IMG/VR virus record: IMGVR_UViG_646311924_000013 | Length of the DNA stretch: 38,725 nucleotides | From: a virus | Lineage: Duplodnaviria > Heunggongvirae > Uroviricota > Caudoviricetes | Reading direction: 5' to 3' (one strand) | Shown: one piece after another, positions 9,001 to 12,000 of the stretch | Layout of the letters: each line of letters opens with the position of its first letter | Numbering within the stretch: position 1 is the stretch's first letter | Made by a program: the position numbers

Positions 9001-12000
9001 GTGAATCCCCCTGTGCGGAGGGGCAATCAGCAACCAGGTATATGGGGTAATCGCGGATTCAGGTGCTGGTACTGAATTCACCGGGAGGCACCCGGCACCA
9101 TGCAAGAAAAAGAATGTGCATGCAAACATGCCCCTCTCCGGAGGGGCTTTTTTATGGGTAAAAAAATGCCCGAATGGGTTCGGGCAATAGCATGAGATAC
9201 TGATATTGTTGTGTTGTTATCGTGTGGATTTTAACCAGGGTTTATCAGGCTGCGCAACTGCGTGGCCTTTTTTCATTTCTTGGGCTGTAGTCCCCGTGTG
9301 TCATTCAGGCTTCCGGACTACAGCCCACTCCATATCTGATTTAATACACTATCCCGGCCGGGAGGAATAATGACATTTAAACATTATGATGTTGTCAGGG
9401 CGGCGTCGCCGTCAGACCTTGCTGATGCACTTGCGCAAAAAATTCGTGAAGGATGGCAACCATATGGTGGGCCGTTTTCTTCGTATACGGATGATGGCGC
9501 AGCACTTATTCAGGCGATTGTCGCAGAAGGTGATGTGAGCACACCTGTTGTGGTGAAGCCGACAGGTGGAGAAGGTGCAGTAATCAGCGCCACCAGCGAC
9601 CCCGGGTATTACTTTGTTGTGGTTCTGGCAGGGCAGTCAAACAGCATGGCATATGGTGAAGGCCTTCCGCTGCCGGAGACATATGACCGTCCGGACCCGC
9701 GCATTAAGCAGCTGGCGCGTCGCAGTACGGTGACACCGGGCGGTGTCGCCTGTAAATATAACGACATCATTCCGGCGGACCATTGTCTGCATGATGTGCA
9801 GGACATGAGCCGCCTTAACCATCCGAAAGCGGACCTGTCAAAGGGGCAGTACGGAACCGTGGGGCAGGGGCTGCATATCGCCAAAAAACTGCTGCCGTTT
9901 ATACCGGCGAATGCGGGCATTCTGCTGGTTCCGTGCTGTCGTGGTGGTTCAGCGTTCACCACCGGAGCTGATGGCACATACAGTGACGCGAGTGGTGCCT
10001 CGGAGAATTCAACCCGCTGGGGTGTGGACAAGCCGCTGTATAAGGACCTTATCGGTCGAACAAAAGCAGCACTGAAGAAGAATCCGAAAAATGTGCTGTT
10101 TGCCGTGGTGTGGATGCAGGGGGAATTTGATTTTGGCGGTACGCCGGCAAATCACGCAGCACAGTTTGGTGCGCAGGTTGATAAATTCCGTGCAGACCTG
10201 GCGGATATGGCAGGTCAGTGCGTCGGTGGCTCTGCTGACGGTGTTCCCTGGATATGCGGGGACACGACGTATTTCTGGAAGCAGAAGAACGAATCCTCGT
10301 ACCAGACGGTGTACGGCAGCTACAAAAACAAAACGGAAAAGAATATCCATTTCGTACCGTTCATGACGGATGAGAATGGGGTGAATGTGCCGACGAACAA
10401 ACCGGAAGAAGACCCGGACATTCCGGGTATCGGATATTACGGTTCGAAATGGCGTGACAGCTCAGCCACCTGGACGTCACAGGACAGGGCGAGCCATTTC
10501 AGCGCCTGGGCACGCCGTGGGATTATTTCCGACCGTCTGGCAACGGCGATTTTGCGCCATGCGGGAAGAGTGGCGCTAAACGCGGGGGCATCATCGACAG
10601 TATCAGAGGTGCGCCCGTCATCGCCTTCCGGTGCAGAAGCCACAGGCGTCACAACACTGCTCTCTTACCTTGCCAGCGAGTCAGAGGGAAGCCTGAAAGT
10701 ACAGGGATGGTCAGCCAGTGGCGGCAGGGCAGAAGTGGTCAGCGATGCGGAGGGAACCGGAGGTAAGGCAGTGAAGCTGACCAAGGAAGCCGGTAAAAGC
10801 AGCTGGGTGCTGGAGTACGCCGCGGGCAACGGTGCGGCTCTGTTACAGAAAGGGGGGCAGATTCGCTGCCGCTTTAAGGTTTCGGGAGCGCTGGCTGCGA
10901 ACCAGTATGTTATGGCGTTTTACTGGCCGGTATCTTCACTGCCACAGGGCGTTGCCCTGACCGGAGACGGGGGGAATAACCTGCTGGCAGCGTTCTACAT
11001 CCAGACAGATGCAAAAGACCTGAATGTGATGTACCACAATGCGAAAGTGGCGACAAACAACCTGAAACTGGGAACCTTTGGCGCATTTGATAACGAATGG
11101 CATACGCTGGCCTTCCGCTTTGCCGGGAATAACAGCCTTCAGGTGACGCCGGTTATTGATGGTCAGGATGGCACACCGTTCACGCTGACGCAGTCACCGG
11201 TCAGTGCATTTGCGGCGGATAAACTGCATGTGACAGACATTACCAAAGGTGCGACTTACCCGGTGCTGATTGACAGCATTGCGGTGGAAGTGAACAACAC
11301 AGACACTGCGGCATGATAAAAAAAACCGCCAGCGACAGGAATGGACGCTGGCGGTGGTAATACCTATGGAGAAAAAATAAAGGAACGATACTTTCGTGCT
11401 CTGGTTTTTTAAATGAAAACAGTTCTTATTGTCAACAATAACGGAAAGAAATTATGACATTTCTGAACCAGTTAATGCTGTACTTCTGTACGGTGGTCTG
11501 TGTGCTGTATCTCCTTTCGGGTGGGTACAGGGCCATGCGTGACTTCTGGCGCAGACAGATTGACAAAAGGGCCGCTGAGAAAATCAGCGCCAGTCAGTCA
11601 GCCGGAAGCAAACCCGAAGAGCCGCTCATTTAGCGGCAACTTTCTTAATCACATCTTTCGACGAGAAAATCCCATGTCAGAAATTACATCCCTGGTCACT
11701 GCTGAGGCAGTGAAGGAAGTCCTGCGCTCTGAAGAAGTCCTGAGTGCACTGAAACAAAAACTTCGCCATAACCTGGAAGCGCGTCTTGATGCAGAAGTGG
11801 ATGCCATTCTGGATGAACTGCTGGGCGCACCGGCAGCTCCGGAGCCGGAAGGTATCGCGGGTGAGGGGAGTGCTTCAGATAGCGGTGACCCCACACCGGA
11901 CAGCGACATGATGATGTAAGCATGCGTCAGGGACCATCGGTGTGTGCCGGTGGTCTTTTTTATTGTTGTGAGCTTCCGGATTGCGGGAGACGGGGTATGA

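Follow-up and report, generated by a model that had tools for sequence, protein, structure and literature searches.

The open reading frame (ORF) at positions 9370–11316 of IMG/VR virus record IMGVR_UViG_646311924_000013 (Caudoviricetes; 38,725 nucleotides, the whole of which is referred to here as the window) is confirmed as nanS-p, a gene for a three-domain prophage sialate O-acetylesterase, by domain, structural and motif matches that are not attributable to chance. The window represents an O111-type lambdoid prophage without a Shiga toxin (Stx) gene, stx, and we consider it very probable that its NanS-p is a de-O-acetylase produced from the late transcription unit governed by the antiterminator Q, released by lysis and, most likely, also displayed on the capsid. 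The grounds for this view from the present analysis are the identity of the domains, the conservation of catalytic and binding residues, the genomic position, a terminator-rich leader and a covariation between the N-terminus of the protein and the type of phage head. For enzyme activity, growth benefit, mitomycin C induction and the capsid decoration seen in phage phi24B, we rely on the literature on near-identical homologues; capsid binding by the window allele and expression of the window copy, which resides in an apparently defective prophage, are points that we infer.

In the mechanism that we propose, nanS-p would be transcribed within the Q-dependent late unit, in the place that directly follows stx in Stx phages. 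The SGNH/SASA esterase core, with Ser90 and His376, would hydrolyze the 7-, 8- and 9-O-acetyl groups of free or mucin-bound sialic acids, Neu5,9Ac2 among them, and carbohydrate is the probable target of the C-terminal lectin-like jelly roll. The de-O-acetylated sialic acids would be usable by Escherichia coli once the sialidases of other bacteria have freed them. Release of sialic acid from mucin needs a sialidase, which E. coli is not known to have. An earlier reading of the same DNA from its sequence alone (the sequence-only reading) proposed that the enzyme could release usable sialic acid from mucin; the part of that proposal which stands is the de-O-acetylation of free or mucin-bound sialic acid, and the release from mucin has to be dropped. 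Phage lysis, whose cassette starts with holin S, would be the exit route of an enzyme that has no signal peptide. NanS-p would most likely also be displayed on the capsid through its DUF1737 domain, the variable segment of which would be matched to the head module, and the proposed binding partner of the DUF1737 type found in the window, termed alpha here, is a fusion of a ClpP protease and the major capsid protein (MCP).

The NanS-p protein and its relatives

The nanS-p coding sequence (+ strand, 9370–11316; 648 residues plus a stop codon) begins with an ATG, 4 nt 5' of which sequence inspection revealed the Shine-Dalgarno sequence GGAGG (9361–9365, +). In addition to Pfam and Protein Data Bank (PDB) matches, PHROG 143 matches the whole protein end to end; an NCBIfam search of the protein returned no model, only a spurious sub-threshold match to acetylornithine transaminase (19 bits versus a cut-off of 735). 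The sequence-only reading had this ORF exactly right in its coordinates and in its length of 648 residues. Its call of a DUF1737 N-terminus and an SGNH/SASA esterase core was borne out by Pfam profile searches, in which both exceeded their cut-offs, as well as by the structural match described below, but its account of the domains missed the third, lectin-like domain that contains DUF6645.

DUF1737 (PF08410) occupies residues 3–53 (9376–9528, +; E = 1.5e-11, 44.4 bits versus a cut-off of 24), and alignment and Mantel tests mark out a variable segment at residues 19–54 (9424–9531, +), which in the window is of the alpha type, DALAQKIREGWQPYGGPFSSYTDDGAALIQAIVAEG. The esterase core spans residues 74–396 (9589–10557, +), which align to E. 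coli NanS/YjhS (PDB 3pt5; E = 2e-116), and has the Pfam match to SASA, sialate O-acetylesterase, at residues 83–278 (E = 1.7e-10; 41.3 versus a cut-off of 24.8). The variant SGNH blocks common to NanS and NanS-p (GQSN, QGE and R[AS]SH, as defined in PMC10462455) are all found in this core: block I, GQSN, at residues 88–91, with the Ser90 codon at nt 9637–9639, QGE at residues 250–252, and RASH at residues 373–376, with the His376 codon at nt 10495–10497. The C-terminal lectin-like jelly-roll domain, residues 426–643 (10645–11298, +), includes DUF6645 at residues 492–610 (E = 1.3e-74, above the curated cut-off), and 216 of its 218 residues are the same in the PDB 6yp6 chain, which was deposited as 'NanS-p' (E = 3e-140). 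Four aromatic residues of the window protein, Y513, Y518, Y543 and F614, are the counterparts of Y510, Y515, Y540 and F611 in the phi24B homologue, where they form a proposed carbohydrate site. All the elements of the NanS-p architecture are present, that is, an esterase core, an N-terminal DUF1737 and a C-terminal jelly roll with the four aromatics.

Neither this gene family, which has been characterized biochemically and structurally, nor the allele itself is new, as the latter is already present in dozens of sequenced O111 genomes. Many genomes of E. coli O111 and related enterohaemorrhagic E. coli (EHEC) have a chromosomal locus with 100% DNA identity to nanS-p, and at the identical O111 locus the RefSeq product name is 'DUF6645 domain-containing protein'. 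The window differs from the genome of the O111:H- strain 110512, whose chromosome has ten nanS-p places, by five mismatches over 23.3 kb. The gene is 99.2% identical in DNA, and 99.1% in amino acids, to H0032 of the Stx1 phage VT1-Sakai, and the protein is ~91% identical overall to the type found in 933W and PA2. Homologues of nanS-p were found in 1905 of 5426 complete E. coli genomes, at no more than 15 places per genome.

All nanS-p alleles examined from EDL933 and O104:H4 give active Neu5,9Ac2 esterases, nanS-p alleles enable growth on Neu5,9Ac2, and NanS-p strips mono-, di- and tri-O-acetyl groups from the glycans of bovine mucin (reviewed in PMC8065619, PMC8319020 and PMC10462455). Alleles of non-Stx and cryptic prophages also give active enzyme (Saile et al., as summarized in PMC8065619). 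The nutritional benefit to lysogens suggested in the sequence-only reading holds at the level of the family, for which a growth benefit on Neu5,9Ac2 has been published (PMC10462455, PMC8065619). The window NanS-p has no signal peptide, hydrophobic N-terminus or hydrophobic segment (maximum 19-residue Kyte-Doolittle mean of 1.42), so that lysis or transport on particles must be its way out of the cell. Consistent with this, Z3342, the NanS-p of CP-933V, was a top-ten supernatant protein in the wild type and also in mutants of the type I, type II and type III secretion systems (PMC12962677).

Covariation of the DUF1737 segment with head type

The label of cargo gene that the sequence-only reading gave to nanS-p is probably incomplete, as the phi24B homologue is reported to decorate the capsid via its DUF1737, and in our analysis the variable segment of DUF1737 and the type of head module vary together. 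According to a preprint (bioRxiv 10.64898/2026.04.10.717836), the phi24B homologue gp84 decorates the capsid, with DUF1737 as its anchor, and is among the strongest bands of the virion, being full-length (~70 kDa) in fresh particles and processed on storage. Its DUF1737 forms a hexamer (Ala2–Ser57, with Tyr42 as anchor) on the central hexons of the T=9 capsid, and most DUF1737 proteins are single-domain (same preprint). None of the five papers found to mention DUF1737 relates its variants to head type.

The beginning of nanS-p is much more diverse than the rest: over the first 231 nt, 40 of 346 phage records were at least 90% identical to the window, compared to ~296 of 342 that were at least 95% identical over the whole gene. 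To determine the covariation, 17 GenBank loci were fetched with their head genes, and residues 19–54 were sorted into three types. The alpha type of the window was accompanied by a ClpP-MCP-fusion head in all five of its loci; in the window itself this fusion, head type A, lies at 19941–22112 (+; RefSeq start 20133; Pfam Phage_capsid_4 and CLP_protease). The beta type, that of phi24B and 933W, occurred with Sepvirinae podovirus heads in the four loci typed, with the pairing for phi367 made by taxonomy only, as the sequence that was fetched does not reach its head genes. The gamma type, which is three residues shorter, was found with Pankowvirus, HK97-like and lambda-E-type heads (8/8 loci). 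Over residues 19–54, alpha has 47% identity to the beta of phi24B and 933W. The esterase and C-terminal domains each fall into two deep families (about 72% and 35–47% identical, respectively) which are shuffled over all head types. Different values were obtained when each segment was compared with sameness of head type: the Mantel r was 0.775 for residues 19–54 (p = 0.0002), versus 0.07 for the esterase and 0.03 for the C-terminal domain. Neighboring genes were likewise close to zero (DUF1378, -0.02; DUF826, 0.03; holin, 0.13; lysozyme, -0.01; Rz, 0.04), with TerL (0.97) and the portal protein (0.98) having the high values.

A sliding analysis of 32 loci, mostly from IMG/VR, located the signal further. 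The r value was 0.67 for codons 19–54 and 0.51 for the linker, compared to 0.13–0.19 for the 600 nt upstream, 0.01 for codons 1–18, and 0.05–0.13 for the esterase, the C-terminal domain and 1 kb downstream. Across the two sets, about 50 loci in all, the head-linked signal forms an island, and the 5–6 kb that set it apart from the head genes recombine freely. Simple physical linkage or common descent was considered as the sole cause of the association and was rejected, since the flanks on both sides do not track head type and so neither upstream nor downstream linkage explains the signal. It is this contrast between adjoining segments of the same loci that is the strong point of the covariation. 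In addition, the window and VT1-Sakai both have the alpha type and head type A, despite having different Q genes and, upstream, no stx in the one and stx in the other. The most variable stretch, residues 33–50, coincides with the capsid-contacting loop of phi24B.

The alpha type is present in only 14 phage records of the phage collection, and 11 of the 12 phage records with the window-type capsid gene have an alpha N-terminus. The twelfth, CP-1639, was examined as an exception, having head type A without alpha, and was set aside because the whole segment of nanS-p, S and R is deleted in it. In an IMG/VR replicate that was typed automatically, 28 of 29 loci were concordant (alpha on head type A in 10, beta on B in three, gamma on C in four and gamma on E in 11), the sole mismatch being locus L074, with gamma on head type A. 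We regard the covariation as a modest result, a small new lead rather than a new kind of system.

Several observations weigh against a capsid anchor that is specific for the head. In GenBank, the Morioka Stx1 phage and the recombinant HUN/2013 have alpha on podovirus heads, so that phages can be viable without a match of N-terminus and head. Capsid proteins from two Pfam families with no relation to each other, PF05065 and PF03864, accompany the gamma type, and this argues against a strict lock-and-key fit; gamma subtypes (EKLTH versus ERLTQ) were tried as separators of head types C and E and did not separate them. The loci are related by descent, so that the permutation p-values overstate their independence. 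Capsid binding has been shown for the beta type only, on a T=9 podovirus capsid, and the MCP of the window has no detectable similarity to the MCP of the PA2/phi24B type (Sepvirinae T=9, PF13252). The alpha loop reads SSYTDDGAA, versus STAGYGAE in phi24B, with Tyr39 where phi24B has its 'tooth' Tyr42. The comparison of the two anchor regions is otherwise equivocal: the loops are of the same length and Gly54 is conserved, the window protein has DVSTP after Gly54, versus the processing motif SISSP of phi24B, and an SSP motif is present at residues 417–419, N-terminal to the C-terminal domain. Lastly, an AlphaFold2 single-sequence model of residues 1–65 (predicted local distance difference test score of 76) did not reproduce the reported helix and three-strand fold beyond residue 31, placing a helix where the preprint has strands, and we consider that model uninformative. 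On balance, the alpha allele may anchor NanS-p to its own head type, a proposal which at present is plausible rather than probable.

Two other arrangements were seen among the loci that were compared. In phage vB_EcoS-640R1 (15986–16189 of its locus), a standalone DUF1737 ORF, annotated as 67 residues, of the gamma type and with no esterase, is located at the same pre-holin position; the head of this phage is HK97-like. In six other loci (L090, 9704–11746; L091, L092 and L094–L096), there is a class of NanS-p-like esterases that are ~78% identical from residue 63 on and have, in place of DUF1737, an unrelated N-terminal region of ~100 residues without a Pfam match. In L090, the only one of these whose neighbors were typed, the esterase directly follows the baseplate, tail-fibre, fibre-assembly and DNA-invertase genes of a contractile-tailed prophage.

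An alternative that would dispense with any particle role is that nanS-p is purely lysogenic-conversion cargo (a 'moron'), a soluble enzyme released by lysis to feed surviving lysogens, with the variation in DUF1737 merely following phage lineage. The published phenotype is indeed nutritional, with nanS-p alleles being needed for growth on Neu5,9Ac2 (PMC8065619, PMC10462455), and the gene occupies the site of stx and other morons. Moreover, the mismatched pairs of N-terminus and head occur in phages that were isolated as such, CP-1639 retains head type A without any nanS-p, and a single N-terminal type accompanies unrelated capsid families. We nonetheless consider this alternative unlikely, as the phi24B homologue is a major virion band whose DUF1737 hexamer has been resolved on the capsid, and neither simple lineage nor linkage predicts a head-type island at codons 19–54 (r of 0.67–0.78) amid flanks that do not track head type (r ≤ 0.19). 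The window and VT1-Sakai also share alpha and head type A in spite of their different Q genes and stx status.

Similarly doubtful is a second alternative, in which the enzyme serves the phage: displayed on the capsid, it would bind and de-O-acetylate the sialoglycans of mucus, or O-acetylated polysaccharides of the bacterial surface, aiding retention or movement in mucus or access to receptors, with the nutrition of lysogens as a by-product. Capsid decoration and post-release processing in phi24B are in its favor, the authors of the preprint having themselves proposed mucus adherence, as are the lectin-like C-terminal domain, the covariation of N-terminus and head, and the second class of esterases, with its unrelated N-terminal module and, in L090, its place right behind the baseplate, tail-fibre and invertase genes of a prophage with a contractile tail. 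De-O-acetylation of lipopolysaccharide has also been raised as a possibility in a review (PMC8065619). Against it, the gene is dispensable in some phages, and the copies in EHEC genomes, of which there can be up to 15, are mostly in defective prophages that make no virions, a distribution consistent with selection acting on the host.

Returning to the reading in which NanS-p is both released by lysis and carried on the capsid, a broader form of it can be put forward tentatively, as a possibility that falls somewhat short of probable. DUF1737 would be an interchangeable capsid anchor in every lambdoid head lineage, NanS-p would be a mucin-modifying enzyme displayed on the virion, and its N-terminal allele would have to match head genes located 5–10 kb away, with alpha as the anchor for ClpP-MCP-fusion capsids (the Sp15/VT1-Sakai type). 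Standalone DUF1737 ORFs of 60–70 residues at the pre-holin position, such as that of vB_EcoS-640R1, would be decoration proteins in their bare form, to which the esterase was later joined. If a head-specific anchor exists, NanS-p would shift from being metabolic cargo of the lysogen to being an enzyme on the virions of Stx phages and related phages in gut mucus, which would affect the modeling of phage spread, toxin-gene transfer and mucus colonization. The alpha, beta or gamma N-terminus would also be a sequence marker for the capsid type of fragmentary prophages.

Proposed late transcription and the prophage neighborhood

The late-region location given in the sequence-only reading was verified, with nanS-p lying between the late antiterminator gene Q (6321–7142, +; 273 residues; Pfam Antiterm, E = 5e-52; RefSeq 'antitermination protein') and the gene for the P21-type holin S (11997–12212, +; Pfam Phage_holin_2_1 and RefSeq), which is the start of the lysis cassette. 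The same order is common to VT1-Sakai, PA2, YYZ-2008 and others. Directly after Q, a candidate late promoter PR' with a pause element was found by eye at 7148–7191 (+), consisting of TTGATT, 16 nt, TGgTAAATT and then AACGATGGG, and we take this candidate site to be lambda-PR'-like. A scan of 6900–12600 for consensus sigma-70 promoters found none, the PR'-like site being missing from its list because it scores 8/12. In the same interval there are 17 terminator-like sites versus 6.0 ± 2.6 expected. The terminator scan placed five intrinsic terminators on the + strand between the PR'-like site and nanS-p: one at 7225–7240, the first of the five, which is tR'-like, and others at 7553–7570, at 8906–8923, 3' of a tRNA-like element, at 9130–9147, the 3' end of a small RNA (sRNA) resembling STnc100, and at 9247–9268, ~100 nt 5' of the nanS-p start codon. 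The combination of a PR'-like site, five + strand terminators and no consensus promoter fits with Q-dependent read-through to nanS-p.

The condition of the prophage tells against expression of this particular copy. In the matching O111 genome, the interval from yciI to the left copy of the insertion sequence (IS) element IS1203 has only a small recombinase gene and a hypothetical ORF, with no int, cI, cro, N, O or P between those two points. A second IS1203 interrupts the lysis cassette between the holin and endolysin genes. The Q/PR' module is present once in O111:H- 110512 (some other genomes have 2–5 copies), and trans-activation by an identical Q of a sibling prophage was accordingly rejected for that strain. 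The absence of the early region, the IS1203 in the lysis cassette and the single Q/PR' module together make self-induction, late transcription and lysis from this element doubtful, and going by its gene content, a prophage of the window type appears unlikely to induce itself in the matching O111 genome. The expression upon induction that the sequence-only reading envisaged is published for the family (PMC10462455, PMC8065619), with mitomycin C raising nanS-p expression by 1–2.4 logs as determined by quantitative PCR of stx2a-linked alleles (PMC10462455), but it is not assured for the window copy, given the lack of an early region in the matching genome and the IS in the lysis cassette. Inducibility cannot be assumed for an intact nanS-p ORF in a prophage without an early region and with IS insertions, and the context of each copy matters.

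The least probable of the alternatives is that nanS-p in the window is a silent copy, an intact ORF in a decaying prophage with no useful transcription or release and with the NanS-p activity of the strain coming from the other approximately nine copies, for although the replacement of the early region by IS1203 in the matching genome, the IS1203 within the lysis cassette, the single-copy Q/PR' module, the five terminators 5' of nanS-p and the ten nanS-p places in the one chromosome all suit it, the ORF, Shine-Dalgarno sequence, Q and PR'-like site are intact, as are holin, endolysin, Rz and every head and tail gene, many O111 isolates from several countries and hosts share the sequence with 100% identity, and alleles of non-Stx and cryptic prophages give active enzyme, as noted above.

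The gene order of the window is that of a lambdoid prophage. It begins inside an IS1203, followed by a truncated DUF1627 gene, nin-region genes, a RelE/ParD pair, DUF968, RusA, Q, a DNA methylase of 352 residues, the tRNA-like element, the STnc100-like sRNA and, antisense, the sRNA AgvB. Next are nanS-p, DUF1378, DUF826, the P21-type holin, IS1203, endolysin and Rz, and the 3' part consists of the terminase, portal and ClpP-MCP-fusion genes, lambda-like tail genes, a tail fibre gene, an IS1 fragment and an NleH-like kinase effector gene. There is no stx among these genes. Pascal et al. described the 273-residue Q, the 352-residue methylase and a distinct 'D3' DUF1737 variant in O111-type prophages (PMC10462455). 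The left IS1203/IS629 copy (window 1–900) truncates the DUF1627 gene and, in the matching O111 genome, stands in place of the entire early region. The toxin-antitoxin pair in the nin region comprises a RelE/ParE toxin and a ParD antitoxin (3910–4472, -; RefSeq at the identical O111 locus).

The IS1203/IS629-type IS3 element in the holin-endolysin interval (orfA and orfB at 12487–13700, +, with the element at about 12440–13750; ORFs and RefSeq) splits a gene there, and its ALIL frameshift pseudoknot is at 12768–12884 (121.5 bits). The endolysin gene (lysozyme R) follows at 14123–14656 (+; ORF list; RefSeq 'lysozyme'). Beyond the tail fibre gene (34861–36180), an IS1 transposase fragment and then a 196-residue OspG-type kinase (Pfam, E = 2e-90) were identified in 36906–38177; the kinase lies in a stretch of low GC content (38–44%) and is an NleH-like type III effector at the usual effector locus at the end of a prophage.

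Several RNA elements surround nanS-p. The tRNA-like element at 8822–8881 (+) matched the Rfam tRNA model with 37.3 bits over model positions 7–64 only, RefSeq has a 71-nt tRNA-Met at this place in the O111 genome, and ARAGORN called no tRNA anywhere in the window. Two or three tRNA genes are found here in Stx phages, and the element may be a degenerate remnant or an atypical tRNA. Between it and AgvB, an STnc100-family sRNA is complete at 8967–9159 (+; RF02076, 144.5 bits versus 47) and ends in the terminator at 9130–9147. The anti-GcvB sRNA AgvB is full-length at 9161–9222 (-; RF02702, 96.5 bits versus a gathering threshold of 56), ~150 nt 5' of nanS-p, with a terminator-like hairpin of its own at 9186–9167; the related AsxR model was sub-threshold (43 versus 63). 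After the nanS-p stop codon, a sub-threshold likeness to the sRNA Esr41 at 11318–11394 (-; 30.9 bits versus a gathering threshold of 102; hairpin 11338–11326) is probably not a true member of that family.

Comparison with known systems

The closest counterparts of the window gene are the NanS-p genes of EHEC prophages, such as Z1466/L0105 of 933W, Z3342 of CP-933V, H0032 of VT1-Sakai and vb_24B_21 (gp84) of phi24B, which have the same DUF1737-SASA-DUF6645 architecture and occupy the same site, from Q (and stx where present) to holin S. CP-933V is the Stx1 prophage of EDL933, which we take to be the counterpart of VT1-Sakai. The window prophage differs from these in being without stx and in having the 273-residue Q and the 352-residue methylase upstream. 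In comparison to phi24B and 933W, it also has the alpha form of DUF1737 and the ClpP-MCP-fusion head module of a long-tailed phage instead of a T=9 podovirus head.

Chromosomal NanS (YjhS; 3pt5) has a homologous SGNH-type core with the same variant blocks, GQSN, QGE and R[AS]SH, as the window protein. However, chromosomal NanS is a single-domain protein of ~330 residues that belongs to the nan regulon, whereas the window protein has 648 residues owing to the addition of DUF1737 and a lectin-like domain. Chromosomal NanS is exported; the window protein is without a signal peptide and is encoded in the late operon of a prophage.

A more distant parallel is Hoc of T4, which has mucin-binding Ig-like domains. 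There is no sequence relationship between the two proteins, and, according to the preprint, NanS-p differs from Hoc in being a hexamer rather than a monomer, in carrying an enzyme and in being shed proteolytically. If the phi24B result generalizes, NanS-p would nevertheless resemble Hoc as a small capsid-binding module that shows a glycan-directed domain on the centers of hexons.

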